In this document: positions 3,437 through 20,341 of the stretch, one piece after another
Layout: the number at the start of each line of letters is the position of its first letter
How positions within the stretch are numbered: the first letter of the stretch is position 1
Source: Fimbriimonadaceae bacterium
GTDB taxonomy: Bacteria > Armatimonadota > Fimbriimonadia > Fimbriimonadales > Fimbriimonadaceae
Assembly (NCBI GenBank): GCA_022402505.1
Contig: JAKRSE010000138.1
Span: 1 to 25,849, forward strand
DNA: 25,849 nucleotides
Reading direction: 5' to 3'
Program-made: the position numbers and the translations under genes
The notes under the pieces: generated by a model
The model's database searches: none
Told to the model about the DNA's origin: nothing
Seen by the model: the letters and a program-made list of their open reading frames with translations, nothing else

Positions 3437-3967
3437 TCAGGCCAGAGGCCAGGTCTGAACCGTGACCGACTCCATCACCGCCGGATTCTCATCCAGCGGG
3501 TTGTCGTTGCGGTCCCGCTTCAGGGCGACGATCTTGTCGACGACATCCAGGCCGTCGATGACCCGACCGAAGACGGTGTACTGGCGGTCCAGATGCGGCA
3601 CCCGGTCCACGCAGACGAAGAACTGGCTGCCGGCCGAGTTCGGATCGCTGGTCCGAGCCATGCTCAGAATCCCCTTGGTGTGGGGAATCTCGTTGAACTC
3701 GGCCGGCACCGTATAGCCCGGGCCGCCCGTGCCGTGCAGGTGTCGAGGCTTGTCCTTGGTGTTCGGGTCGCCGCCCTGGATCACGAAGCCGGGGATGATC
3801 CGGTGGAACTTCACGCCGTTGTAGAAGCCGTCGCTGCTCAGCTTCTTGAAGCTCTCGACGTGCTTCGGAGCGACCTCGGGGAAGAACTGAAAGACCATGC
3901 GGCCGAGGTTGGTCTCCACGACCACGACCTCTTCGCCCGCCACCGCATCCTTCGGGACGAAGCTCAC
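3437..3967 (-). CDS. Cyclophilin-type peptidyl-prolyl cis-trans isomerase, cytoplasmic (176 aa)
   Basis: FHRIIPGFVIQGGDP, GILSMAR, SAGSQFF, LDRQYTVFGRV. GTG start at 3967 overlaps the upstream TGA (GTGA), with AGGAGG upstream. Confidence 0.92.
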   Translation of the reverse strand: MSFVPKDAVAGEEVVVVETNLGRMVFQFFPEVAPKHVESFKKLSSDGFYNGVKFHRIIPGFVIQGGDPNTKDKPRHLHGTGGPGYTVPAEFNEIPHTKGILSMARTSDPNSAGSQFFVCVDRVPHLDRQYTVFGRVIDGLDVVDKIVALKRDRNDNPLDENPAVMESVTVQTWPLA

Positions 3968-4707
3968 TGAGCCTCCTCCTTCGGTGCGGCCGGACCGTCG
4001 GCCTTCACCCCGTCGACCGGCCACTTGTCCATCCGGATCGACTTGACCACGACCGCGTTGGCCGGCTCGACCGAACCGTTGTTGTTCACGTCGCCCGTCT
4101 TCACAATCTGGTCGATCACGGTCATTCCGGCCACGGTCTCACCGAAGGCCGAATACTGCCCGTTCAGGCCCTCGTTGTCGGCCTGCATGATGAAGAACTG
4201 GCTGCTGGCCGAGTTCGGATCGTTGCTGCGGGCCATGCTCAGGACGCCGCGCTTGTGGCTCAGGTCGCTGGGCTCCAGGGCGACCATCCGCTCCCGGCCT
4301 CCCTCCATGAATCCGCCGGTGCCCCACTCGGCCGCTCGACTCATCTCCTTGGAGTTCGGGTCGCCGCCCTGGATCATGAAGCCCAGGATGCAGCGGTGGA
4401 ACCGAGTGCCGTCATAGAACTTGCGGCCGACCAGGTCCTTGAAGTTTTCGACATGCTTCGGCGCCTTGTCCGGGCGGAACCGAACCACGATCTTGCCCTT
4501 GTCGGTGTCGATGACCGCCACTTCCTCGCCGGGCTGAACCGTGGCCGAGACTTCGGCGGCCGGCTCCGGCTTGGGGGTCACCGCCGCTTCGGTTTCGGCT
4601 TCGGGAGTCGGGGCAGGCTCGGTCGGAGCGGGCTCGGACGGGGCGCAGCCCCAGGCCAGGCTGAACGCCGCCACGGCCAACGTCGGGATCCAGAACGGAA
4701 CCTTCAT
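3964..4707 (-). CDS. Cyclophilin-type PPIase, probable lipoprotein with Pro/Ala/Glu-rich linker (247 aa)
   Basis: Start MKVPFWIPTLAVAAFSLAWG|C gives a plausible, slightly non-canonical lipobox. Motifs FHRCILGFMIQGGDP, GVLSMAR, SASSQFF, LNGQYSAFGE. Confidence 0.9.
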   Translation of the reverse strand: MKVPFWIPTLAVAAFSLAWGCAPSEPAPTEPAPTPEAETEAAVTPKPEPAAEVSATVQPGEEVAVIDTDKGKIVVRFRPDKAPKHVENFKDLVGRKFYDGTRFHRCILGFMIQGGDPNSKEMSRAAEWGTGGFMEGGRERMVALEPSDLSHKRGVLSMARSNDPNSASSQFFIMQADNEGLNGQYSAFGETVAGMTVIDQIVKTGDVNNNGSVEPANAVVVKSIRMDKWPVDGVKADGPAAPKEEAQ

Positions 4708-4714
4708 AGGTTTG

Positions 4715-4720
4715 ATGGTA
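4715..4720 (-). promoter_or_regulatory. -10 element TACCAT of a probable leaderless promoter
   Basis: Minus strand reads TACCAT-caaacct-ATG(4707), with no SD sequence. Confidence 0.4.
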
Positions 4721-4867
4721 CCGGCGCAGCGAAAACCGCCTCCGGGAGGGACCGCCGGTCGAAAAACCTCAAGCGACACTCCAGAGATCGGGTCTGCCGC
4801 CCGAACATCTGATGTGGAGCCGTTCCGGGCCCGGCATATCTGCCGGCTGCCCCTGAGGACGGATGGC

Positions 4868-6100
4868 ATGGCAGCGATGTGGGAACTGGGTGCAGCGGCA
4901 GGAGCCGGATTGGCAGCGGGCATGGTCGGCATGCGCCTCCTCGCCGGGCGATCCAGGAGGAAGGGGCCCGCCCTCTCCGAGAGCGCCCTGGCCGCCGCCT
5001 GTGAACGCATGAGCGAGACGGGAGGAGATGACGACTCGCTCGCCCAGGCCGTCGCCTCAGCCGCCCGACTGGTCGGCGCCGAAGCCGCCGGACTCTACCT
5101 GACCGAAGGCGAAGGCATCCTCTTCATCTGCGCCGCCACCTGGACGAGCCGCGATTCCGTCGCCTTTCCCCGCCTCGTCACCATGGGACAGGGCCTGATC
5201 GGTCACGCCGTGGAACTGGGTCAGGAGATTCGAGCCTCGCGCAACGGCGAGGACCCCGGCGCCCTGATCGAGCTGGACTCCAGAACCCAAGCGGTCGTCG
5301 TTCTTCCCCTCTCCACCGCCCACCACCCCGCCGGAGGCACCCAGAGGGTCAACCGGGTTGTCGGCGCCCTCGTTCTCAGCCACTTTTCCGACGTCAAGGC
5401 TCTGGCCGGAGCCGGACTGGAACCCGCCCGAGCCGCCGCCTCCGTGCTCGCAATGGCCATCGGCTACCGAATGCTCGAGCAGTTCCAGCAGGAGACGCTG
5501 GTCCAGGCGATGCAGGCCGTTTCGCACCACCTGGAAGAGAAGGATCCCTATGTGGCCGGGCATTCGCACCGGGCGGGAGCGCTGGCCCTGCTCATCGGTC
5601 GCCGACTCCAGCTCGACCGCACCTCCCTCGATCACCTGCGCCTGGGGATGGCCCTGCACGACATCGGCAAGGTCGCCGTCTCCGACGAGATCCTGCACAA
5701 GACCACGAAGCTGACCGACGAAGAGTTCCGACAGATCGCCCGGCACACTGAGGTCGGGTTCGAAATCTGCCGGCCGCTCCGACTCCCGCCCGAAGTCCTT
5801 TCGATCATCCGCAGCCACCACGAACGGCTGGATGGTTCGGGCTACCCGGACGGACTCCGCGCCGACGAGATGCCGCTGATCCTCCGCATCGCCGGAGTCA
5901 GCATCGCCTACGACGCCATGAAGTCCAAGCGGCCGTGGCGACCCGCCCTCACGGCAGCCGAAACCCTGACCGAACTCGCCAAGGTCGCCGGCCGCCATGT
6001 GGACCCGACGGTCGTCCAGGCCCTCCAGTCCGTGGTCACGGAAGGCGACTACTTCGACATCTATCCTGAAGACCGACCGGAACGACTGGGGGCCGCATGA
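4868..6100 (+). CDS. N-terminal hydrophobic segment + GAF + HD-GYP domain protein with a non-canonical active site
   Basis: EEKDPYVAGHS, LHDIGK, RH..VG and HHERLDGSGYPDGL are present. The conserved 'VAD.(F/Y)DAM' reads VSIAYDAM. GAGGA lies upstream of ATG 4868 (alternative start 4877). Confidence 0.85.
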   Translation: MAAMWELGAAAGAGLAAGMVGMRLLAGRSRRKGPALSESALAAACERMSETGGDDDSLAQAVASAARLVGAEAAGLYLTEGEGILFICAATWTSRDSVAFPRLVTMGQGLIGHAVELGQEIRASRNGEDPGALIELDSRTQAVVVLPLSTAHHPAGGTQRVNRVVGALVLSHFSDVKALAGAGLEPARAAASVLAMAIGYRMLEQFQQETLVQAMQAVSHHLEEKDPYVAGHSHRAGALALLIGRRLQLDRTSLDHLRLGMALHDIGKVAVSDEILHKTTKLTDEEFRQIARHTEVGFEICRPLRLPPEVLSIIRSHHERLDGSGYPDGLRADEMPLILRIAGVSIAYDAMKSKRPWRPALTAAETLTELAKVAGRHVDPTVVQALQSVVTEGDYFDIYPEDRPERLGAA

Positions 6101-7182
6101 GCCCGGCGCTCGGAGTGGACCTGGGACGCGGCGAAATCAAGGTCGCCGCCCTCGCCCGGACCCATCGCAAGATCCGGGTCGTGGGCGTCGCCGTGCTGCC
6201 CGCCAAGCCGGACGATCCTCGATCGGCGGCGCGAAGCCTGCAGAAGCTCTGCCAGGCCCGAGGCTGGTCCGGAGCTCCCTGCGCCTTCGGAGTCGATCTC
6301 GACGAGACGACCCTGAAATGGACTCAGATGCCGCCCGTCGCCCCGGAAGACCGTCTCGGCGCGGCCGGGTCGATCATCCGCCGGGATCTCAACTCGCCGC
6401 TGGAAGAGACGTTCCTCGCCCTCCATTCCGGAGCGGACGACGAATCGCTGATCACCGCCGTTCATCGGGACTCGCTCGACCGCCGAGCCAACCTTCTGCT
6501 CGGGATCGGGCTCCAGCCGGTCCACGCCGAATTCGAAGGCCTCTCGATCCACCGCCTGGTTCAAAAGGCGCGGGCCGGGATGGTCGGAGGGGCCAGCACC
6601 ACCGTCGTCGATCTGGGCCGACGATCCACCCGGATGTACATTCTCCAGGGGAACCGCTTCCGGTTCTCCCGCACCATCGCCTTCGGGGCCGACGGACTGA
6701 TCCAGCGGCTTGTGAACGACCTGGACATCGGCCCGGATGAGGCGGTCGAGCTGCTTCACGACCCGGATTCCTACCTCACGATTCAGGGCTCGCTCCATCT
6801 GCCGTTTCGGAACAGCCATGCGGTCGTTTCGGTGGTCGAAGAGCTCCGGCTCCTGGCCCGCGAGTTCAGCCGGCTCATCAAGTACTTCCGATCGATCCAC
6901 CCCAGCCGCAGCTTCGGAGGACTGCTGGACGCCTTCCAGCTCACCGGCGGCCTGGCCGGCCTGATCGGACTCAGCGACTTCATCGGCCAAGAGGTCGGGA
7001 TGGCGGTTCAGTCGTTGAACCCCTTCGCCGGACTCGCCATGGACCTTCCCGCCGACGAACTCCGATCGGCCCTCATCTCTCCGAACCGGTTCGCCGCCGC
7101 CGTGGGCCTCGCCCTGGCGCTCGAACCGGATTTCGCCGCCCCTGCCCGAGAGGTCGGACATGTCTGGACCCGCGACGCTTGA
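6097..7182 (+). CDS. pilM: PilM-like actin-fold assembly protein
   Basis: LGVDLG..EIK, VVDLGRRST and LTGG actin-like motifs; FRFSRTIAFGADGL..RL. ATGA overlap with the HD-GYP gene. Confidence 0.8.
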   Translation: MSPALGVDLGRGEIKVAALARTHRKIRVVGVAVLPAKPDDPRSAARSLQKLCQARGWSGAPCAFGVDLDETTLKWTQMPPVAPEDRLGAAGSIIRRDLNSPLEETFLALHSGADDESLITAVHRDSLDRRANLLLGIGLQPVHAEFEGLSIHRLVQKARAGMVGGASTTVVDLGRRSTRMYILQGNRFRFSRTIAFGADGLIQRLVNDLDIGPDEAVELLHDPDSYLTIQGSLHLPFRNSHAVVSVVEELRLLAREFSRLIKYFRSIHPSRSFGGLLDAFQLTGGLAGLIGLSDFIGQEVGMAVQSLNPFAGLAMDLPADELRSALISPNRFAAAVGLALALEPDFAAPAREVGHVWTRDA

Positions 7183-7756
7183 AGCCGAATCCACCCGCCG
7201 CCAAGGCAACCTGCTGGACGCCTGGATCCGCGAGAAGCGCGATCTTCTGGCCCGCTCGCGCCGGATCAACGCCGCCATCATCGGCGCGTCCCTGGTCCTC
7301 ATCGGCAGCCTGGGCTGGTTCCCCGCACGGATCTTTTCGCTGATGAGCGCCGACGCCCTCAACCAGCGCCGGATCGAGGAAATGGGGCAGAGCTCCAGCC
7401 AGGTCCAGGCCCTGGACGTCCAGCTGGCGCAGGCCCGCGGCTACCGCGACCTCACCGCCGGCCTCGACAAGACCCACCGCAGCCTCTACGGCCGCCTGGT
7501 CACGGTGATGAACTCGGTGCGGCAGGGCACGGTGCTGATCACCTTGAACGCCGCCGCCGTGGACGGCCGACTGCAGCTCTCCGGCACCGCCGAAGTCGCC
7601 TCGTTCCAGTCCGGCCGAGACTTTCTGCAGAACGTCGAATCCGCCTTCGACTCCGGCCAGGTCCGAGCCGTCATGACCGGATCCAAACCATCGCCGGTTC
7701 TGGGGCCCCAGGGCCAGACCATCGACTTCCTGATCGTGGAGGAGACGCGACGGTGA
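7160..7756 (+). CDS. PilN-like bitopic membrane protein
   Basis: One N-terminal TM, a coiled-coil, then a ferredoxin-like segment (LQLSGTA...FLQNVES). Located directly after pilM. Confidence 0.65.
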   Translation: MSGPATLEAESTRRQGNLLDAWIREKRDLLARSRRINAAIIGASLVLIGSLGWFPARIFSLMSADALNQRRIEEMGQSSSQVQALDVQLAQARGYRDLTAGLDKTHRSLYGRLVTVMNSVRQGTVLITLNAAAVDGRLQLSGTAEVASFQSGRDFLQNVESAFDSGQVRAVMTGSKPSPVLGPQGQTIDFLIVEETRR

Positions 7757-8340
7757 TCGGAGGCCTCCCGGCAAGCGGGCAGATCCTGGCCCGACGCGCC
7801 GCCCTGGCACGAGGCCTGGCGATCGCCGCCGGCGTGCTCCTGGTCCTCGGCTTTGGCGCCGACCTGCTCCTCGCCGGGCGCGAAGGCAGATCGGCCCGAG
7901 AAGCCGACGAGCTCGAAGCGCAGATGAAGGCCCGGCGGACCGACCTCGCAGCCCTGGAAGAGCAGGCCCGAGACACGATGACCGGCCTCCAAGCCGTCAC
8001 CCGCATCCAGGAGTCTCTGGTCCAGCTGGGCCGCACGGTTGGAGTCTCCGTCACCTCATTCCAGAGCTCGCCCCAGCTCGCTCCCTTCCTATCCGGCTAC
8101 GGAACCCCCGCTCCCGGAGGATGGCTGATGGCCGGCGTCGAGATGGAGGCGGAGGGCAATGCCCTCGCCCTCGCCCGGTTCATCCGCTCCTTCCCGGAAA
8201 GCGGTCTCCGGTTCGAGGTCGCCGAAGTCCGGCTCACCCCGGGGCCGGCCGCGCCGGAAGGCAAGACCATGATCACCGCCGGCCTCAGACTCGTCGTGCT
8301 GACCCGAGACCCGGCTGCATCGACCGGAGGCCGTTCGTGA
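7753..8340 (+). CDS. PilO/GspM-like bitopic membrane protein
   Basis: One TM, a coiled-coil, then 'VEMEAEG..LALARFIRS'. ATGA overlap and position after pilN. Confidence 0.55.
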   Translation: MIGGLPASGQILARRAALARGLAIAAGVLLVLGFGADLLLAGREGRSAREADELEAQMKARRTDLAALEEQARDTMTGLQAVTRIQESLVQLGRTVGVSVTSFQSSPQLAPFLSGYGTPAPGGWLMAGVEMEAEGNALALARFIRSFPESGLRFEVAEVRLTPGPAAPEGKTMITAGLRLVVLTRDPAASTGGRS

Positions 8341-9011
8341 AGTTCGACGGCAAGACCATCGCCCTCCTGGCCCTGATGCCGGTGATGATGGCGGTCGCCC
8401 TGATGAACGTGCTGCCGATGCTGATGCGCAAGCCTGCGCCGCCGCGACCGCCAAGGCAGACGAGCGTGGACTACTCTGCCAAAGTCCTCAACCCCGACCT
8501 GGTCACCGACCCCTTCTACCATCCGGCCCTGGTTTCGGCCACGACGCCGACTCCCGGCCCCGGAGCCCTGCAGGCCCCTTCGACTCCGGTCATGCCCGCT
8601 CGGCCCTCCGCTCCGGCAGTGCTGCCTCCGCCGACGATGGCGGGCAGGATGGATCCGGGCATGGGCGACGCCGGACTGCAGCCTTGGACTCCCCCAAGCC
8701 CCGGAAGCCCATCGGCGCCCCTGCCTTCCGCCACCGGACCCCTGCCCCCCACGGGCCCGGCCCAGAGCTTCAGCCCATCCGAACCTCCCCTGCCGTCCAC
8801 GCCGCTCCTCGCCTTCACGGTGAAGGGGATCGTCTGGGGCGACCGGCCCTTCGCCTTCATCTCGGTGGAAGGCGGCCCCTCCGACCGCTTCTTCATCGGC
8901 GATTCACCCGCCGAAGGGGTGCTGGTCCAAGCGATTTCATCCACGAGCGTGACCCTGGTGCGCGGCAAGACGGCCAAGACCCTGGGTTCGGGAAAAAGTG
9001 ACACCCTATGA
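8337..9011 (+). CDS. GspC/PilP-like protein (TM anchor, Pro-rich linker, C-terminal beta domain; 224 aa)
   Basis: GTG start at 8337 overlaps the upstream TGA. C-terminal VKGIVWGDRPFAFI...FFIGD....GVLVQAIS.TSVTL resembles the HR/PilP domain. No lipobox Cys. Confidence 0.55.
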   Translation: MKFDGKTIALLALMPVMMAVALMNVLPMLMRKPAPPRPPRQTSVDYSAKVLNPDLVTDPFYHPALVSATTPTPGPGALQAPSTPVMPARPSAPAVLPPPTMAGRMDPGMGDAGLQPWTPPSPGSPSAPLPSATGPLPPTGPAQSFSPSEPPLPSTPLLAFTVKGIVWGDRPFAFISVEGGPSDRFFIGDSPAEGVLVQAISSTSVTLVRGKTAKTLGSGKSDTL

Positions 9012-10885
9012 TCCCTTCCTTCTTCGCCGTCGCAGCCGGCCTTGCTCAGCCTGAGCCGATCCTGCCGCCCGTCCATCCGATGCCGGTGCTTCGCCGACCG
9101 TCGGGTTCGGAGCTTCGACCTGTCGATCCCCTCTCGGACGCCGGATTCATCGTCCGCTCGGGAGCCGAAACGATTCCGGCCGGAGCCCAGGGGCGAAACG
9201 AGGCCTTCACGGCCGCCCTGGCGATGATCTTCGGACCCGCTCCGACGCCTCCGCCTGTCCCGGCGGCACCCGTCGCGGCGCCTCAGGCCCCCGAACCGGC
9301 TCGGACTCCCCCCGTCAGCCTGGCCGGCCCCGTGGATTCCCGGCGAGGGCGATCACAGGTGCTGCCGCCTGCGGCCAGGCCCGTTCCCCCGGCTCCTCGG
9401 GTGGAACCGCAGCCGGCCCCGGCCGCCCTGGCCGCCAATCTGACGACCGCCCCCTCCTCCCCGACCGGACCGCGAGGACAGGCGACCGATCCCGGCGACC
9501 CGATGATGCCGGAGATGGCGCCCGCCTCCGTCTCCACCCCGATCGCCCGGCCCGTGGATGTCAAGGCCCTGCCGATCAAGGCCTCGGGCACCGCCGCCTC
9601 CCTCAGCCTGGACGTGGTCGATCTGGAAGTGAGCCGGGTGCTTCAGGTCATCAGCGAACAGGCCAAGACGAACCTGATCCTGCTCAGCAACCCGCAGAAG
9701 ACGCTCACGATCCGGCTGCAGAACGTACCGCTGGACGAGGCCCTCACCCACGTGTGCGCCATCGCCGGACTCCGACGTCTGAAGATCGGCACCACCTACG
9801 TGATCGCCTCTCCCGAGGAGCTGTCCGCCGCCTATCCCGAGGAGTACCGAGCCGCCTATCCTTCGGCCGCCCCCGCCGTGCAGGGACCCGCCGTCCCCGA
9901 GGCGAGGGAGCTGATCGTCCTGCAGGTGAGCTTCACCAGCGCCCCGGCCCTGGCCAAGGTGCTCCAGGAAACCTTCCCCAAAGATGAGCTGACCGTGGTC
10001 GTCGGACCCGCCCAGCATGTGCCCCGCCTCTCGGACTCCAACACCGAGGACAAGACCGGCGTGCAGACCGGGCTCCTGACCGAGGAAACCGGCCAGGGCG
10101 GCTCGGGGAACGATGGCGGCGACCCGAACAGCCGGATCATCGTTCTCCAGGGAACCCCGTCCGTGCTGGAACGAGCCAAGATCGTGGCCCAGGCGATGGA
10201 CCGAGCCCGGCCGCAGATCAGCATCTCGGTCCGGATCATCGACGTGCAGAATGAGGCCCTCCGAGACCTCGGGGTCAGCTGGTCCTTCAGCGATTCCACC
10301 ATCAGGGAACAGGAAGGCGGCGGGTTCAACATCCGCAGCTTCGACCGCAGCCCGCAGACCTTCTCCGCCGCCCTCGCCGCCCTCCAGAGGAGCGACCGGG
10401 CCAAGATCCTGGCCGAACCGAACATCAGCGTCCTGGACAACCAGCGCGCCTTCATCCTGATCGGCCAGCGGCTCAACTTCCCGACTCTGATCGGCTACAC
10501 CCAGGCCAACACTCCGATCTTCAGCCCCAAGGAAGAGAAGGTCGGCATCTACCTGCAGGTGGCGGCTTCGGTCGCCCCGAACGGCGAGATCACCATGAGC
10601 CTCTACCCCCAGGTCAGCACCGTGACGGGCTTCCTGGAAGTGAGCGGCGGCAGCTACCCCCAGATCGCCACCCGCGAAGCCCAGACCACCGTCCGGGTCT
10701 CCAGCGGCGAGACGATCATGATCGGCGGCCTGATCCGCGATGATGAGATCAGGAACGTGCAGAAGGTGCCCTTCCTCGGAGACATTCCGATCCTGGGCGA
10801 GTTCTTCCGGAAGACGCGAACCCAGCGGACCTCCAGCCAGATCATCATCAGCATCACCCCGACCGTCACCCCGCCCCGCCCCTGA
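9008..10885 (+). CDS. Secretin (GspD/PilQ family) with a long Pro/Ala-rich N-terminus
   Basis: STN-like domain, N3-like domain, and secretin motifs AKILAEPNISVLDNQRAFILIG and VSSGETIMIGGLI....VQKVPFLGDIPILGEFFR. Confidence 0.92.
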   Translation: MIPSFFAVAAGLAQPEPILPPVHPMPVLRRPSGSELRPVDPLSDAGFIVRSGAETIPAGAQGRNEAFTAALAMIFGPAPTPPPVPAAPVAAPQAPEPARTPPVSLAGPVDSRRGRSQVLPPAARPVPPAPRVEPQPAPAALAANLTTAPSSPTGPRGQATDPGDPMMPEMAPASVSTPIARPVDVKALPIKASGTAASLSLDVVDLEVSRVLQVISEQAKTNLILLSNPQKTLTIRLQNVPLDEALTHVCAIAGLRRLKIGTTYVIASPEELSAAYPEEYRAAYPSAAPAVQGPAVPEARELIVLQVSFTSAPALAKVLQETFPKDELTVVVGPAQHVPRLSDSNTEDKTGVQTGLLTEETGQGGSGNDGGDPNSRIIVLQGTPSVLERAKIVAQAMDRARPQISISVRIIDVQNEALRDLGVSWSFSDSTIREQEGGGFNIRSFDRSPQTFSAALAALQRSDRAKILAEPNISVLDNQRAFILIGQRLNFPTLIGYTQANTPIFSPKEEKVGIYLQVAASVAPNGEITMSLYPQVSTVTGFLEVSGGSYPQIATREAQTTVRVSSGETIMIGGLIRDDEIRNVQKVPFLGDIPILGEFFRKTRTQRTSSQIIISITPTVTPPRP

Positions 10886-10900
10886 GAGGCACACCCACCC

Positions 10901-12613
10901 ATGCATGCCGAACGCAGCATCATCGACGTCCTGATCGAAGAGCAGCTCGTCACCCCGGAACAGGTGAACGAGCTGCTGGCCAACCGTCGCGACCTGACGG
11001 TGGAAGTGGATGAACTGGCCGTTCAGCAGGGGCTCATCTCGCAGGCGGACCGGTGCCGATGCCTGGGACTCGCCACCGGAATCCCCTTCCACGACCTTCG
11101 ACGCCTGCCCCCCAGCCCGGCGGCGGCCTCCTCGCTTTCGGCCCGACTCGCCAGCCGATTCGTCGCCGTTCCGGTGGACCTGACCGACTTCGCCGCCACC
11201 GTGGCGATGGCCAACCCCCTGGACCTGGAGGCGCTGGACGCCCTGCAGCACGCGCTGAACCGCGAGATCGACCCCATGTGGGCCGTCGCCGACGACATCA
11301 AGGAGGTCCTCGTCCGCACCCACGGCAAGCTGGACGAACTGGCAAACCTCATCGGCGAACTGGCGATCGGCGACCACGACATCGAACTCGCCACCGAGGT
11401 CGATGAGCCGGAAGGTCAAAACGCGGTGGACATGCGGCTCATCGCCGACGACGCCCCCGCGATCAAGCTCGCCAACGCCCTCATCAGCCGGTCGGTCAAG
11501 GTCGGCGCGAGCGACATCCACATCGAACCCGGCGAGAAATCGGTCCGGGTCCGGTTCCGCATCGACGGCCTGCTCCAGGAGGTCATGCAGGTGCCCAAGG
11601 ACCTCCAGCGGTCGCTCATCTCGCGGCTCAAAGTCATCGCCGGGCTCGACATCGCGGAACGCCGCGTGCCTCAGGACGGCCGAATCACCATGTACGTCCA
11701 GGAGGGCAGCTTCGACCTCCGCGTCGCCACCTACCCCTGCGCCTACGGCGAGAAGATGATCATCCGCGTGCTGAACAAGGCGGCCATCTCCATGCAGCTC
11801 ACCGAACTCGGCATCCCGCCGCAGTCGTTGATGAGCCTGATCCACGCCGCCGAGCAGACTCAGGGCCTGATCCTGGTCAACGGACCGACCGGCAGCGGAA
11901 AGACGACGACCCTCTACTCCGTCCTCAACCACCTGAACCGCGTCCATCGGCACATCATCACCATCGAAGACCCGATCGAATACCGGCTGGACGGCATCGT
12001 CCAGGGCAACGTCAACAACGCGGCCGGGCTCACCTTTGCCCGAGGGCTGCGGGCGATGCTCCGCGCCGACCCCGACGTGATCTTGGTCGGTGAAAGCCGC
12101 GACCCGGAAACCGCCGGCACCGCCATCGAAGCCGCCCTGACCGGCCACCTGGTGCTCACTTCGCTCCACGCCAACGACGCCGCCTCGGCCGTGGTCCGAC
12201 TCGGCGAAATGGGCGTCGAGCCCTTCCTCGTCGGTTCCGCCGTCACCTGCTCGGTCGCCCAGCGGCTGCTGCGGAGGGTCTGCCCGAACTGCCGCACGGA
12301 ATACATGCCCGACCACGCCGCCATGCTCCTGCTCGGCCTCGATCCGGGCGAAACCTTCCTCCACGGAGCCGGCTGCGACATGTGCAACGGCAGCGGCTAC
12401 CGCGGCCGCGTCGGGGTCTACGAGGTCATGACCGTGACGCCCAAGATCCGAAGACTGATCTATCAGAACGCCCCGGGCCATGAGATCACCCAGGTCGCCA
12501 AACGCGACGGGATGATCGGCATGAGGGAGGACGCCCTGAGCAAGGTCCGCGCCGGAATCACCACCGTCGAGGAAGTCCTCCGCGCCACCCCCGAAGACGA
12601 GGCCGCCGCATGA
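10901..12613 (+). CDS. GspE/PilB-family extension ATPase
   Basis: ASDIHIEP, PQDGR, Walker A GPTGSGKT, Asp box TIEDPIEY, Walker B DPDVILVGE, His box GHLVLTSLHAN, and tetracysteine CPNC...GCDMC. Confidence 0.95.
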   Translation: MHAERSIIDVLIEEQLVTPEQVNELLANRRDLTVEVDELAVQQGLISQADRCRCLGLATGIPFHDLRRLPPSPAAASSLSARLASRFVAVPVDLTDFAATVAMANPLDLEALDALQHALNREIDPMWAVADDIKEVLVRTHGKLDELANLIGELAIGDHDIELATEVDEPEGQNAVDMRLIADDAPAIKLANALISRSVKVGASDIHIEPGEKSVRVRFRIDGLLQEVMQVPKDLQRSLISRLKVIAGLDIAERRVPQDGRITMYVQEGSFDLRVATYPCAYGEKMIIRVLNKAAISMQLTELGIPPQSLMSLIHAAEQTQGLILVNGPTGSGKTTTLYSVLNHLNRVHRHIITIEDPIEYRLDGIVQGNVNNAAGLTFARGLRAMLRADPDVILVGESRDPETAGTAIEAALTGHLVLTSLHANDAASAVVRLGEMGVEPFLVGSAVTCSVAQRLLRRVCPNCRTEYMPDHAAMLLLGLDPGETFLHGAGCDMCNGSGYRGRVGVYEVMTVTPKIRRLIYQNAPGHEITQVAKRDGMIGMREDALSKVRAGITTVEEVLRATPEDEAAA

Positions 12614-13845
12614 GCGCATTCAAGTACAAGATCCTGACCGGCGACGGAGAGACGAAGACCGGGGAAGTTCAAGCGGGGGGGCTGGAAGAGGCCGAGCGCC
12701 GGCTGCAGCAGCAGGGCGCGACCGTCATCTCCCTGGTTCCCCTCTTTGAGAAGAAGGCCAAGGAGGCGGCGGGCGCCAAGCCGCTCACCCAGGTCCGCGT
12801 GGGGAAGGCCAAGGCAAAGCCCGCCGAGCTCGCCACCGTCCTGAGAAACCTGGCCGTCCTCGCCGAATCCGGCGTCCCCTTCTATGAATCGCTGAACGCG
12901 GTGCAGGAAGGAGCCGAGTCTCCCGCCCTCCGCGAGGGCCTGGAAAAGGTCAAGAGCCAGGTGATGGCGGGCCGGACCCTCGGCCAATCCCTTCGCTCGG
13001 CCCCGGAGCTCTTCACCCCCATGGTCTGCGACATGGTGGCCACCGGCGAAGAGAGCGGCCGACTGGACAAGGCCCTGACCGGAGCCGCAGCCTACATGGA
13101 CCGGGCCGTCGCCCTCCGGGCCAAGCTCGTCAACGCCCTCATCTATCCCTCCATCCTGCTCGGAGTCGCCGGCCTCACCGTCTCGGCGCTGGTTTTCTTC
13201 ATCATGCCGCGTTTCGCCGAAACGTTCAAGGGCATGAACATCAAGCCGCCGGCCGTCACCCAGGCGCTCATGGATTTCGGCACCACCGCCTCCACCAAGC
13301 CCTGGCTCTTCATCGTGGTGCCGCTCGCGGTCGTCTTCCTGATCAAGTTCATCGCCGCCAAGCCGGTGCTCCGAGACTTCTTCCTTCGGCTCTCCCGCCG
13401 GATTCCGGTCCTCGGGCCCGTGCTGCGACAGCTGAGTCTCGCGAGGATGCTCAGCACCCTGAGCAGCCTGCTGGGAAGCGGAGTCAACCTCCTGCCGGCC
13501 CTGGAGAGCGCGGGCAAGGTCTCCGGCGATCCCGACATCGAAGCCGCCTGCGAGGCCGCCCACCAGGACGTTCACGGCGGCGGAATGCTGAGCGAATCCT
13601 TCAAGCGGACCCGAGTCCTGCCCCCGACGCTGGTCCAGATGGTCGCCGTCGGCGAGCGGAGCGGAAGGCTGAGCACCCTGGTGGAACGGGCCAGCGAGGA
13701 GATGGAGGTTCAGGCCGACGCCCGGCTCAAATCGCTCATGGCGATCTTCGAGCCGATCATGATCCTCGTGATGGGCGGCGTCATCGGCCTGATCACCTTC
13801 TCCCTGATCTCGCCGCTCTTCTCGGTGCTGCAGAACGTGAGGTGA
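12610..13845 (+). CDS. GspF/PilC inner-membrane platform protein
   Basis: Two T2SSF repeats (ATGEESGRLD; AVGERSGRL), YPSILL and EPIMILVMGG.IG. Confidence 0.95.
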   Translation: MSAFKYKILTGDGETKTGEVQAGGLEEAERRLQQQGATVISLVPLFEKKAKEAAGAKPLTQVRVGKAKAKPAELATVLRNLAVLAESGVPFYESLNAVQEGAESPALREGLEKVKSQVMAGRTLGQSLRSAPELFTPMVCDMVATGEESGRLDKALTGAAAYMDRAVALRAKLVNALIYPSILLGVAGLTVSALVFFIMPRFAETFKGMNIKPPAVTQALMDFGTTASTKPWLFIVVPLAVVFLIKFIAAKPVLRDFFLRLSRRIPVLGPVLRQLSLARMLSTLSSLLGSGVNLLPALESAGKVSGDPDIEAACEAAHQDVHGGGMLSESFKRTRVLPPTLVQMVAVGERSGRLSTLVERASEEMEVQADARLKSLMAIFEPIMILVMGGVIGLITFSLISPLFSVLQNVR

Positions 13846-14267
13846 TCTTGAGGCGGCGCGGATACAGTCTGCTGGAGGTTCTCATGGGAGTCTCGGTTCT
13901 GGCCATCCTGCTTGGACTGACCATGCCCGCGCTCCGGGGCATCTCGGCCAACTCTCAGGAGTCGGAGCTGAAGCGGCGACTGCTCCTGGTGCGGCAGGCA
14001 TCGGGGCGGGCCTCGGCCGACATCGGCTGCTTCATCGGTCAGCTCTCCGATCTGACCCTTTCCGCCTCGCCGGGAACCTGCTTCAATGAGAACGGCGATC
14101 CGGTCTCGATTCCGGTCGGCTCTTGGCGCGGGCCCTACCTCGCCTCTCTCCCCATCGACCCGGTCAGCCGAGCGCCCTTCACCTACCAGACCGGCAGCGG
14201 CATGGGCCGTGTCGCCAGTTCCGCCTCCGGCAACGACAGCAAAGGGGTGCCTTTTGCGGGCTACTAG
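13842..14267 (+). CDS. GspG-like prepilin 1 (class III signal G|YSLLE)
   Basis: GTG start overlaps the gspF stop. RRRG|Y with E5, hydrophobic helix, WRGPYL..LP.DPVS. Confidence 0.85.
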   Translation: MILRRRGYSLLEVLMGVSVLAILLGLTMPALRGISANSQESELKRRLLLVRQASGRASADIGCFIGQLSDLTLSASPGTCFNENGDPVSIPVGSWRGPYLASLPIDPVSRAPFTYQTGSGMGRVASSASGNDSKGVPFAGY

Positions 14268-14670
14268 ACGAGGCTTCAGCCTGCTGGAGCTGATGATCGT
14301 TTTGGCGATGGTCGCCACGCTCGCCGCCATCGCCGCCCCCAACCTCATCCTCCAATCGCGGAGAGGCAAGGAGGCCGAGCTCGGCCGACGGCTGCAGCTG
14401 GTTCGGGCGGCCCTGAACGCCTTCCACTCCGACCTCGGCTGCCATCCGACCGCCCTCGCCCAGCTGGAGGCGGTCACCGTGACCCAGTGCCTGGCCCCCA
14501 ACCAGGCGACCATCACCCCGCCCGGAATCGTGCGCGGCCCCTATCTTCCCAAAGTCCCGCTCGATCCGGTCTCCGGCGCTGCGTTCACCTATTCCCCTGC
14601 CTCCGGATTCACGGTCGGCTCATCCGCGACAGGCACCGATCTTGCCGGACGCGCCTACTCCACCTACTGA
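14254..14670 (+). CDS. GspG-like prepilin 2 (class III signal G|FSLLE; 138 aa)
   Basis: Start re-assigned to TTG at 14254 (MRATRRG|FSLLE), preceded by AAAGGGG and overlapping pilin 1. RGPYLPKVPLDPVS. Confidence 0.85.
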   Translation: MRATRRGFSLLELMIVLAMVATLAAIAAPNLILQSRRGKEAELGRRLQLVRAALNAFHSDLGCHPTALAQLEAVTVTQCLAPNQATITPPGIVRGPYLPKVPLDPVSGAAFTYSPASGFTVGSSATGTDLAGRAYSTY

Positions 14671-17630: not shown

Positions 17631-18674
17631 ATGAGCCTTTCCACCATCGCCCTGCTTCTGGCGGCGGGGCAGCCCGTCTGGGTGCCGCCGCCCCCCACCG
17701 AGTTTCAGAACGGAACCTGGGGACCCATCCGCCTGGGCGTCTCGCGCGACGCCGACCTGAAGGCCGCCCTGGATGCCGGGAAGGGAACCGTCCGACCCGA
17801 AGGCCTCCTCGTGCCCACCCACCCCGAGAGCGGCATCCGTGTGGATGTGCTGATGCAGGGCCGCGGAAGGGACGCCCTGGCCCGCGCCGTCCGCATCCAG
17901 TACCGCCCGGGAGTCTCCCCCAGCCTGGACTCGGTCGCCGAGCTCTGGGGTCCGCCCAGAATCGCCTTCGCTCCCATCCGCTGGGAAGACTGGGCGATCA
18001 TGGCCTGGCCGGATCGCGGAGTGGCGGTCGAGAGCCGCCGGGTCGCCGATGAGAACGGCAGCCCTGTTTGGCGGCCGGAAGTCTGGTTCCTCGCCTCGCC
18101 GGACCGGCTCGACGCCGCCCTGGCCCCCTTCGTCGCCGAAGAGACCCCCGTCACCCGCCCCCCGGACCCCGGCGAGGATTGGGACGGCATCTATCGGTAC
18201 AGGTTCGTCCGGGCCTCGGTCTCGATGGACAACAGCCCCGTGGTTCCGGCCGATCTGACCCGGAGGCGGCTGGAAGAGCTTCAGCGCCTCCTGATCGACG
18301 ACCTGGGCCGCCGGGTTCCCGGGCCCATCGCCGGCAACGGGGACCGGGGGACGATCTCCGCCAACGTCCGTTTCGGCGGCATCAACCGGGAGGGCGAATC
18401 GAAGGTGACGGTCTCGGTGACGCTGGAGGCGGAGACCCCCTACGGCACCCGCCGGCTCTCGGCCTCAGAAGAACGGGTCATGACCTTCGACTTTCGCCGC
18501 CGAGCCCGCGATCTGGTGGACTCGGCCTTCGCCAACGTGGTGCGACGGATCGACGACGATCGAAGAAGGCTCGGACCGCCCGAAGTCGGCGAACGGCGCG
18601 AACAGGGACAGCAGATCTTCATGAACATCCTCGCCGGGGCCGTCGGCGGTCAGGAGTCCGGTCGAGGCCGGTAA
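17631..18674 (+). CDS. Hypothetical exported protein (347 aa)
   Basis: N-terminus MSLSTIALLLAAGQP is signal-like. The ORF tiles with its neighbours. No family recognised. Confidence 0.65.
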   Translation: MSLSTIALLLAAGQPVWVPPPPTEFQNGTWGPIRLGVSRDADLKAALDAGKGTVRPEGLLVPTHPESGIRVDVLMQGRGRDALARAVRIQYRPGVSPSLDSVAELWGPPRIAFAPIRWEDWAIMAWPDRGVAVESRRVADENGSPVWRPEVWFLASPDRLDAALAPFVAEETPVTRPPDPGEDWDGIYRYRFVRASVSMDNSPVVPADLTRRRLEELQRLLIDDLGRRVPGPIAGNGDRGTISANVRFGGINREGESKVTVSVTLEAETPYGTRRLSASEERVMTFDFRRRARDLVDSAFANVVRRIDDDRRRLGPPEVGERREQGQQIFMNILAGAVGGQESGRGR

Positions 18675-18745
18675 ACTGGTTGGGTCGGCAGGACGCCGAA
18701 CGTCCTTGGAAGGCGGTGGAACCGCCGCTGTTCGTTGAGTCCCTC

Positions 18746-20341
18746 GTGAAGCCTTCCGCCCGCCTTGCCCTCTGCACCGCCCTGACTCTGGGGGCGGCGG
18801 CGGCGTTCGCCTCACCCCTGCCCCGGCGCATCCTGGTGATCCCGCTGGACGACCGGCCGGCCTCCGCCCAGCTCCCCGCCATGATCGCCGGACTCGCGGG
18901 AGCCGAAGTGGTCATGCCTCCCCGCGACATGCTCGGCCGCTTCGACCGCAACGGAGACCCGGAGAGGATCCTGGCCTGGCTTCGGAACTCGGTTGAGGCC
19001 TCCCGAGTCGATGCCGCCGTGGTCAGCCTGGACATGCTCGTCCATGGCGGCCTGATCGGCTCGCGAGCCCCGGAGCTGGGGTTCGAAGCCGGGAGGAGGA
19101 GGCTCATGGGGTTTTGGGCTTGGCGGCAGTCGCTGCCCCAGGTTCCGGTCTACGCCTTCTCCGCCATCACCCGCCTGGCTCCCACCGCCACGCTCGACCA
19201 GGCTCCCTGGCGGATGCAGGTCGCCCGGCTGGTCGAGTTGGAATCCCAGTGGGGACCTCGCCCGACCGCCGAGCAGGCCCGCCGGCTGCAGGCGCTCCGG
19301 CTGAAGATCCCGGCGCAGGACCTGGTCCGCTATCGGCAGACGCGCCGGAGAAACCTGGACCTCGCCCGGACCATGATCCAGATTCTGGGAGCCGGAGGCA
19401 TGACCCATCTCGCCTTCGGGCAGGATGACGCCGCCGTCCACGGACCCCACCGAGACGAGCAGGCCCGCCTGGAATCCGAGACCGCCCGGGCCGGACTGGA
19501 ATCCAGAACCACCTTCCTTCAAGGGATCGACCAGGTGGCCTCGGTTCTGGTGGCGCGGGCGATCGTCCAGGGGGCGGGGGCGAAGATCACGGTCGAGCCT
19601 CGCTGGGCCGACCCGGCCGGAGCCGCCCTCACCGCCCTCTACGAATCGGAGCCGGTGGCCGCCAGTCTGCGCGGCCAGGTCCAAGCCGCCGGCGCTGAAG
19701 TGGGTTCGGGCCCCGAGGCCCTCCAGGTCCACGTCAACACGCCCGGTTCGACTCCGGACCATGTCGAATTTCTCACCAGGTCCATCCTCGCCGACCTGCA
19801 GGCCGGGCGACAGGTGGGATTGGCCGACATCAACCTCGGCAAGGCCGGAATCCCCGACGCTCGCCTGACCCCGCGGCTGCTCCGGCCCGACCTCTTCCCC
19901 CGGCTCGGAGCCTGGGCGGGTTGGAACACCGCCGCCAACACCATGGGGACCGTGATCCCGGCCATGATCGTGCGCGAAGCGGCGCGGATCGGGGGCGTGG
20001 ACCCAGGCAAGACCGCCCTGGAGACCCGCCGGCTCCTGCTTCATCGCCTCATCACCGACTGGCACTACCACGCCTTCACCCGGCCCCTCGCCTTCGCCAT
20101 GATCGACGGAACCCCCGCCCCGCGCGAAAGCCTGCCGGCCCCCACCCTGTCGGCGGTCGAGGCCCTGGTGCGGCGCGACCTGGCGCCCCGAGCCCAGCGC
20201 TCCTTCCATGACCTGGTGGAAGGCGACGCGGCGGAAGGCCTGCGCATCACCGCCCTGCAGAGCCTGGACATCCGCCTGCCCTGGCCCCGAGCCTATGAGG
20301 TCGAAGTCGATTTTCAGCTGCTTTCTGAGCGGACACGATGA
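18746..20341 (+). CDS. DUF4127-family protein with signal peptide (531 aa)
   Basis: GTG start at 18746 gives the signal peptide ...AAAAFA|S. Motifs ILVIPLDDRP, SLDML.HGGL..SR, GQDD and AWAGWNTAANT.G. Confidence 0.8.
   Translation: MKPSARLALCTALTLGAAAAFASPLPRRILVIPLDDRPASAQLPAMIAGLAGAEVVMPPRDMLGRFDRNGDPERILAWLRNSVEASRVDAAVVSLDMLVHGGLIGSRAPELGFEAGRRRLMGFWAWRQSLPQVPVYAFSAITRLAPTATLDQAPWRMQVARLVELESQWGPRPTAEQARRLQALRLKIPAQDLVRYRQTRRRNLDLARTMIQILGAGGMTHLAFGQDDAAVHGPHRDEQARLESETARAGLESRTTFLQGIDQVASVLVARAIVQGAGAKITVEPRWADPAGAALTALYESEPVAASLRGQVQAAGAEVGSGPEALQVHVNTPGSTPDHVEFLTRSILADLQAGRQVGLADINLGKAGIPDARLTPRLLRPDLFPRLGAWAGWNTAANTMGTVIPAMIVREAARIGGVDPGKTALETRRLLLHRLITDWHYHAFTRPLAFAMIDGTPAPRESLPAPTLSAVEALVRRDLAPRAQRSFHDLVEGDAAEGLRITALQSLDIRLPWPRAYEVEVDFQLLSERTR

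Follow-up and report, generated by a model that had tools for sequence, protein, structure and literature searches.

Why should the first gene of an operon for a pilus- or secretion-type machine encode an HD-GYP protein in which a metal-binding aspartate has given way to isoleucine? This question is raised by the GAF-HD-GYP gene at positions 4868–6100 (forward strand) of the window, by which we mean the whole 25,849-nucleotide stretch of the Fimbriimonadaceae contig JAKRSE010000138.1 that was analysed. A first-pass annotation of this DNA had described the substitution and the overlap with pilM, and had proposed a catalytically impaired, membrane-associated nucleotide receptor or structural regulator. 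We find that the isoleucine is fixed in a whole clade, that the gene lies directly upstream of pilM in every sampled genome with this PilM subtype, and that among the short proteins, of which it encodes one, loss of a ligand from the catalytic metal pair recurs, with most of the nucleotide-binding site kept. The best explanation, to which we give an even chance of being right, is that the gene encodes a membrane-anchored, PilM-coupled regulator that binds cyclic di-GMP (c-di-GMP), hydrolyses it weakly or not at all, and descends from a canonical long HD-GYP protein.

An alignment with HMMER places Ile346 (codon ATC, 5903–5905, forward strand), which lies in the motif RIAGVSIAYDAM, opposite the first Asp of S-D-V-F-D-A-L in PmGH (4mcw), and opposite the equivalent Asp of V-cGAP3 (5z7c) and PA4781 (4r8z). 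This PmGH residue is D311 in the SEQRES numbering and D305 in the literature, as follows from an offset of 6 between the two numberings at the HH pair. The codon and the alignment to active HD-GYPs thus bear out the replacement, and the role ascribed to the lost residue is equally sound. The iron centre of PmGH is held by E185, H189, H221, D222, H250, H276, H277 and D305; of these, H189 and H221 belong with the H site and D305 binds the M-H metal pair, which together with its bridging hydroxide is the proposed catalytic pair (Bellini et al., PMC4159591). The same alignment agrees with the first-pass annotation that the remaining H, HD, H and HH ligands and the GYP motif are present. The kept metal ligands are H232, H264-D265, H293 and H317-H318 (followed by E319), and also retained are G325-Y326-P327, the catalytic pair D226/K268, the structural pair D349-R235 and the c-di-GMP contacts K278, Y326, R355 and R358 (K235, Y285, R314 and K317 in PmGH, the last Lys being Arg here). 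The 'E..D' motif that had been counted among the ligands does not survive the comparison: the position of PmGH E185 is occupied by Tyr228, which offers no carboxylate, so that two of the eight PmGH ligands lack a counterpart (E185 to Tyr228, D305 to Ile346) rather than one. Tyr228 at this position also assigns the protein to the Y/F subfamily of HD-GYPs, predicted to be binuclear (PMC4159591), and not to the trinuclear E/D-T-G subfamily.

The change from Asp (GAY) to Ile (ATH) requires two base changes, and it is shared. Ile is carried by a genome of the same genus (G002), by 11 metagenome protein clusters from several sources (P0003–P0013, about 408 amino acids long and about 50% identical to the window protein) and by a more distant and decayed member of the family (G006). 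These proteins form a single clade in a maximum-likelihood tree (support 99/94), recovered in a larger tree with a support of 97–99 in the Shimodaira–Hasegawa-like approximate likelihood ratio test (SH-aLRT). Three sequences of the clade spell Ile346 as ATC and two as ATT. Of the 121 homologues compared, 105 have Asp at position 346, 13 have Ile and 3 have Asn, and all 13 Ile sequences fall in the window's own clade (the window enters twice, once for each start call). In a set of 146 representatives at 50% identity, 136 have Asp at this position, 5 have Glu and 2 have Ile. Every long orthologue found in the same gene context (see below) has Asp, encoded by GAC or GAT. The first-pass annotation had allowed for an isolated mutation or a sequencing error should the orthologues all carry Asp, and the close orthologues all carry Ile. 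We found no evidence favouring a sequencing or assembly error or a mutation private to this metagenome-assembled genome, and the two base changes together with the clade-wide Ile let us dismiss that explanation with near certainty.

The history of the ligand loss becomes apparent when the syntenic orthologues are divided by length. Eleven of 15 are long (about 550 amino acids), with at least four hydrophobic segments before the GAF domain and the full set of canonical ligands, including the Asp; the other four are short (about 390–416 amino acids), with a single hydrophobic helix, and each of them has changes at the catalytic site. The window's genome and G002 carry D346I. In G006, D346I is joined by H232R, a change of HD to QD and K268S, and the gene still stands at the head of the operon; G003 shows HD changed to MD together with K268N. 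For a wider comparison we made an exhaustive profile search, counted the representatives covering both GAF and HD-GYP, and defined a catalytic-site change as at least one substitution in D226, H232, H264, D265, K268, H293, H317, H318 or D346. Such changes affect 15 of the 16 short representatives and 3 of the 27 long ones (Fisher p 8e-8, a value that is descriptive and not a test, since the rows are related to one another). In the larger tree, 16 short forms constitute one clade (SH-aLRT 92), and its subclades differ in the residue altered: D346I; H264L; H264M/L/I in a clade of eight; H293Y; and D226G. Overall, the sister short lineages have replaced H264 with Leu, Met, Ile or Gln. Alterations at H232, H264 or D346 are found in 14 of the 16 members and at a G-site ligand in one, and the GYP motif, R355 and R358 are kept in 16/16. 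The ratio of HD-GYP identity to that of the operon ATPase is 0.77–0.81 in pairs with short forms against 0.93 between long forms, so relative to the ATPase the HD-GYP protein diverges faster where short forms are involved, and the branch leading to the window protein is long. Read from sequences, these patterns suggest that selection on catalysis has been relaxed among the short forms. The membrane module that the short forms lack (residues 1–160 of the long proteins P0017, P0019, P0123 and P0124) matched no Pfam family; the ancestral module may be an undescribed membrane sensor domain coupled to GAF-HD-GYP.

We propose that the ancestor was a longer, canonical HD-GYP phosphodiesterase that headed the same operon across the order. 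The window's short lineage would have lost the multi-segment membrane module first, and ligands of the M-H metal pair would afterwards have been exchanged for mostly aliphatic residues, D346I here and H264 to Leu, Met, Ile or Gln in the sisters. The G-site ligands D265, H293, H317 and H318 would have been retained, along with GYP and the contacts K278, Y326, R355 and R358. A domain of this kind would bind c-di-GMP at a crippled metal centre and hydrolyse it slowly or not at all, and might work on the cytoplasmic side of the machine as a sensor or a regulator of the 'trigger' type, not as a bulk phosphodiesterase. We infer slow or absent hydrolysis because the short clade dismantles the ligands of the catalytic pair but preserves the G site and the nucleotide pocket. 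A precedent for such a state comes from a crystal of PmGH, where unhydrolysed c-di-GMP was trapped in a monomer holding only the G-site iron (PMC4159591). On sequence grounds the HD-GYP domain of the window is probably impaired in catalysis; a role for it as the machine's receptor or regulator is plausible, at an even chance or slightly below. Somewhat unlikely, in our estimation, is the broader scenario in which independent lineages, after losing the sensor module, have each removed a ligand of the M-H pair and so turned a local phosphodiesterase into a G-site-only c-di-GMP receptor docked at PilM, taking the place of a decayed c-di-GMP sensing by the MshEN region of the ATPase in the window's genus.

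Several observations weigh against a regulator with little or no activity. Besides the phylogenetic non-independence of the counts given above, PmGH D305A itself still hydrolyses c-di-GMP at a lowered rate: all Ala mutants of the PmGH ligands are dead save E185A and D305A, both of which are markedly reduced (PMC4159591). In the Ile subclade without G006, moreover, the remaining ligands and D226/K268 are invariant across about 50% divergence, as one would expect of a metal centre that still works. Finally, N277H, a substitution beside the c-di-GMP-binding Lys278, is fixed in the Ile clade only, and His277 could in principle substitute for the lost ligand. The last three points are the basis of an unlikely but serious alternative, in which the protein is a still-competent local phosphodiesterase that keeps c-di-GMP low beside the machine. 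H232, H264 and D265 would then hold the second metal together with water or with a substitute ligand such as His277; small anions have been suggested by the authors of the PmGH study as stand-ins for solvent-facing ligands (PMC4159591). Against this stands the fact that Ile cannot coordinate a metal and that the E185-type carboxylate is gone as well (Tyr228). The sister short lineages, furthermore, lose the His of the HD motif, whose Ala mutant is dead in PmGH, and G006 has lost three further catalytic-site residues with the gene retained. The earlier proposal of an impaired receptor thus stands in part: the signs of relaxed selection among the short forms favour it, while the residual activity of PmGH D305A speaks against assuming impairment of the degree expected of a receptor.

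The gene context ties the HD-GYP protein to a machine. The PilM subtype encoded next to it has a patchy distribution, being present in 15 of the 41 genomes of the order that were sampled (the window's genome and 40 relatives), and a GAF-HD-GYP gene lies directly upstream of pilM in 15/15 of them. The order HD-GYP, pilM, secretin, ATPase and PilC is likewise conserved in 15/15 genomes and in the three metagenome contigs checked; the upstream neighbours are unrelated in these three contigs, which makes HD-GYP the first gene of the unit. Neither the HD-GYP nor the PilM gene was found in the same-genus genome G001 (98% complete). Four weaker PilM homologues (E 1e-16 to 1e-21) in other genomes have no HD-GYP gene within 1.5 kb and hence belong to another pilus system. 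In the window, the TGA of the HD-GYP gene (6098–6100) overlaps the ATG of pilM (6097–6099) in an ATGA (6097–6100, forward strand), as the first-pass annotation had read it. Nearly all of the 15 syntenic loci have an overlap or a gap of at most 4 nucleotides at this junction (ATGA, TTGA, GTGA, TAATG and others). A GGAGG that can act as the Shine-Dalgarno sequence of pilM lies inside the last HD-GYP codons of several relatives (GGGGG in the window), and a family-wide C-terminal '(E/G)-A-A-stop' coincides with the pilM signal GGAGG-N4-ATGA/TTGA/GTGA (L013–L026, L110–L112, and 6080–6100 of the window). The conserved '...AA' end of the family is therefore attributable to the pilM Shine-Dalgarno sequence and start that lie there, the end of the protein being shaped by translational coupling. 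A consensus scan of 4500–6300 in both directions returned no promoter or terminator match, and hence no terminator-like site between the two genes.

Does the machine still respond to c-di-GMP? The MshEN motif consists of two tandem RLGxx(L/V/I)(L/V/I)xxG(L/V/I)(L/V/I)xxxxLxxxLxxQ repeats (PMC5013675). The N-terminus of the window ATPase (10901–11090) scores 20.6 bits with NF053729 (c-di-GMP_motif), whose cut-off is 38. Neither of its repeats has RLG or the final Gln, so that the published motif is not matched, and the window and G002 ATPases have also lost the Gly of 'xLG' from both. In operons with a canonical HD-GYP the scores range from 29.5 to 46.3 bits, with 3 of 6 over the cut-off, and the other short-form operons give 26.0 (G002), 27.0, 32.3 and 41.1. 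The mean MshEN scores, about 29 bits for short-form and about 37 for canonical operons, describe a weak trend among 11 related operons, which we take as a lead only. With a score under the cut-off, c-di-GMP binding by the operon ATPase was set aside as a part of the mechanism. As judged from these sequences, either c-di-GMP control of the machine may be fading in the window's genus, or sensing may have moved to the HD-GYP protein. The first of these would agree with a further explanation, which we regard as improbable: that c-di-GMP control has been abandoned in the genus and the HD-GYP protein is a nucleotide-independent partner of PilM or a decaying relic. The degenerate MshEN motifs of the window and G002 and the long branch of the window protein speak for it. 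It is hard to reconcile with an intact reading frame translationally coupled to pilM, with an Ile that is itself conserved through synonymous codons, and with the invariance of GYP, K278, Y326, R355, R358 and six metal ligands over about 50% divergence in the Ile subclade without G006. The window genome (73% complete) has at least four GGDEF, one EAL, one PilZ and five HD-GYP matches; with GGDEF, EAL and PilZ encoded, the messenger is evidently in use there. Another of its HD-GYP genes (G000:C231:6198-7170) is directly followed by a PilZ-domain gene.

The window protein itself is encoded by an open reading frame that is translated without internal stops to 410 amino acids. GAGGA stands 8 nucleotides upstream of the ATG at 4868; a public annotation of the gene instead takes the second ATG, at 4877, and gives 407 amino acids. 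The HD-GYP domain (5519–6013, residues 218–382; HD at 5657–5662, HHE at 5816–5824, GYP at 5840–5848) is matched by Pfam HD_5 (E 2.6e-32, residues 218–382; 112.4 bits against a cut-off of 27.2) and by Pfam HD (E 1.6e-16; 61.1 bits against 22). The GAF domain (5036–5452, residues 57–195) barely exceeds its Pfam cut-off (23.6 against 22.4 bits), and its assignment also rests on the alignment with PmGH, which begins within the GAF domain of that protein, and on GAF folds among the structure matches. At the N-terminus, an Ala/Gly-rich hydrophobic helix (approximately residues 5–26, 4880–4945) followed by RSRRKG is indicated by a Kyte-Doolittle scan, which finds one hydrophobic segment at residues 7–25, and by AlphaFold2, which models a helix at residues 2–26 with a low predicted local distance difference test (pLDDT) score. 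It is probably a single membrane anchor, with the remainder of the protein cytoplasmic, in keeping with the membrane association suggested by the first-pass annotation. The AlphaFold2 model as a whole (68 homologues) has a mean pLDDT of 90.3, and its best fold matches are PmGH 4mcw, DvhD 9rbz and PA4781 4r8z, with Bd1817 also among them.

By sequence, the closest solved structure is that of V-cGAP3 (5z7c), specific for cyclic GMP-AMP (cGAMP), with PmGH marginally behind. This ranking, and the variation in substrate range among HD-GYPs (PMC8177086), would fit an altered metal site that suits another substrate (3'3'-cGAMP or pGpG) or another chemistry and has not lost its function. We regard this as highly improbable: V-cGAP3 retains the Asp, and the loss of the HD-motif His in the sister lineages points to lost catalysis and not to retuning. 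No Hypr-GGDEF or CD-NTase turned up, and none was searched for.

The genes that follow pilM are co-directional, in the order HD-GYP, PilM, PilN-like, PilO-like, GspC-like, secretin, PilB/GspE, PilC/GspF and pseudopilins. The PilM-like gene (6097–7182) matches Pfam PilM_2 (4.6e-15) and scores 85 bits, under the cut-off, with TIGR01175. In the block 7160–9011, the PilN-like (7160–7756) and PilO-like (7753–8340) genes and a GspC-like open reading frame ending at 9011 were named from where they lie and from a weak resemblance to genes of relatives; the counterpart of the last, fifth in the operon, has a weak T2SSC (GspC) match in relatives and not one to PilP. Its start is uncertain: a start at 8121 (8121–9011) would overlap the PilO-like gene by about 220 nucleotides, so the true start is probably internal. 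Then come the secretin gene (9008–10885; Pfam Secretin 8.4e-44), the PilB/GspE-type ATPase with its degenerate MshEN motif (10901–12613; T2SSE 4.4e-127), which scores about as well with the PilB model as with the GspE model and stays under the cut-off of each, the PilC/GspF platform protein (12610–13845; T2SSF 2.2e-52) and a first pseudopilin with an N-terminal methylation motif (14086–14670), all on the forward strand. Divergent from the operon, two tandem genes for cyclophilin-type peptidyl-prolyl isomerases occupy 3437–4707 on the reverse strand; a start near 4707 would give the upstream one a lipoprotein-like signal with the lipobox LAWGC. Downstream of the pilin genes, 18068–20341 encodes a large DUF4127 protein (1.2e-103). 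The window also encodes RuvB, whose identity to proteins labelled by NCBI as coming from Fimbriimonadaceae, Fimbriimonadales or Armatimonadetes metagenome-assembled genomes is 67–72%.

Among characterised HD-GYPs, PmGH of Persephonella marina (4MCW/4MDZ), the best fold match and second-best sequence match of the window protein, has the same combination of GAF and HD-GYP, the same H, HD, H and HH ligands, GYP and the c-di-GMP contacts. It differs in being a soluble and active phosphodiesterase with the E185 and D305 carboxylates and a trinuclear iron centre, whereas the window protein has Tyr228, Ile346, a predicted N-terminal membrane anchor and a gene in a pilus operon. DvhD of Desulfovibrio vulgaris (9RBZ/9RC0), a PAS-HD-GYP protein reported in 2026, shows that a degenerate HD-GYP can serve as a c-di-GMP receptor: it lacks HD, HH and the terminal Asp, binds c-di-GMP metal-free and without hydrolysis, and regulates an envelope machine (PMC13090378). 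DvhD is membrane-anchored, as the window protein is predicted to be; the latter likewise lacks the terminal Asp (Asn in DvhD), and its model superimposes with a TM-score of 0.86–0.88 normalised to the target. Unlike DvhD, in which HD has become SQ and HH is lost, it keeps HD, HH, H232 and H293, and so lacks the hallmarks of the metal-free state, to which G006 is nearer; DvhD also controls an adhesin protease, whereas the window protein sits in a pilus operon. The terminal Asp is replaced in Bd1817 of Bdellovibrio (3TM8) too, which carries Asn and a degraded GYP motif and is inactive on c-di-GMP (PMC8177086). There, however, the Asn can still coordinate, two Fe are seen, the Tyr of GYP is missing and the N-terminal domain is DUF3391.

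If the broader scenario of a G-site-only receptor docked at PilM is true, the protein would represent a class of machine-integrated HD-GYP receptors not yet described. Catalytically altered HD-GYPs are only now emerging as c-di-GMP receptors, as with DvhD. The orthologues of the window protein provide a natural series within one syntenic gene, from canonical through one-ligand-short (Ile346) to heavily degenerate (G006). Such a series lets one ask which ligands separate hydrolysis from binding, and test the G-site-only centre as the receptor state suggested by the structure of PmGH with c-di-GMP. It would also open to study a strictly conserved, unstudied coupling of HD-GYP to PilM in a hybrid machine resembling both a pilus and a type II secretion system, in Armatimonadota, a phylum whose cell biology has hardly been studied by experiment.

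Both degenerate HD-GYP domains and the control of pili by c-di-GMP are already known. In Xanthomonas, the HD-GYP protein RpfG, GGDEF and PilZ proteins and PilT/PilU link c-di-GMP signalling to type IV pili. Links of HD-GYP or c-di-GMP signalling to type IV pili are likewise known through PmxA of Myxococcus and the MshEN-bearing MshE of Vibrio (PMC4686200, PMC5013675). None of the titles and abstracts returned by a full-text search on HD-GYP and pilM describes the present arrangement, and at that level we did not find the combination of order-wide HD-GYP-pilM coupling, a clade-fixed change of Asp to Ile, and repeated loss of M- and H-metal ligands after loss of a membrane module. Regulators of the RpfG, PmxA and MshE type are encoded apart from pilMNOPQ and are catalytically canonical; in the window, by contrast, the machine operon itself begins with the HD-GYP gene, in translational coupling with pilM, and the MshEN region of the ATPase is degenerate.

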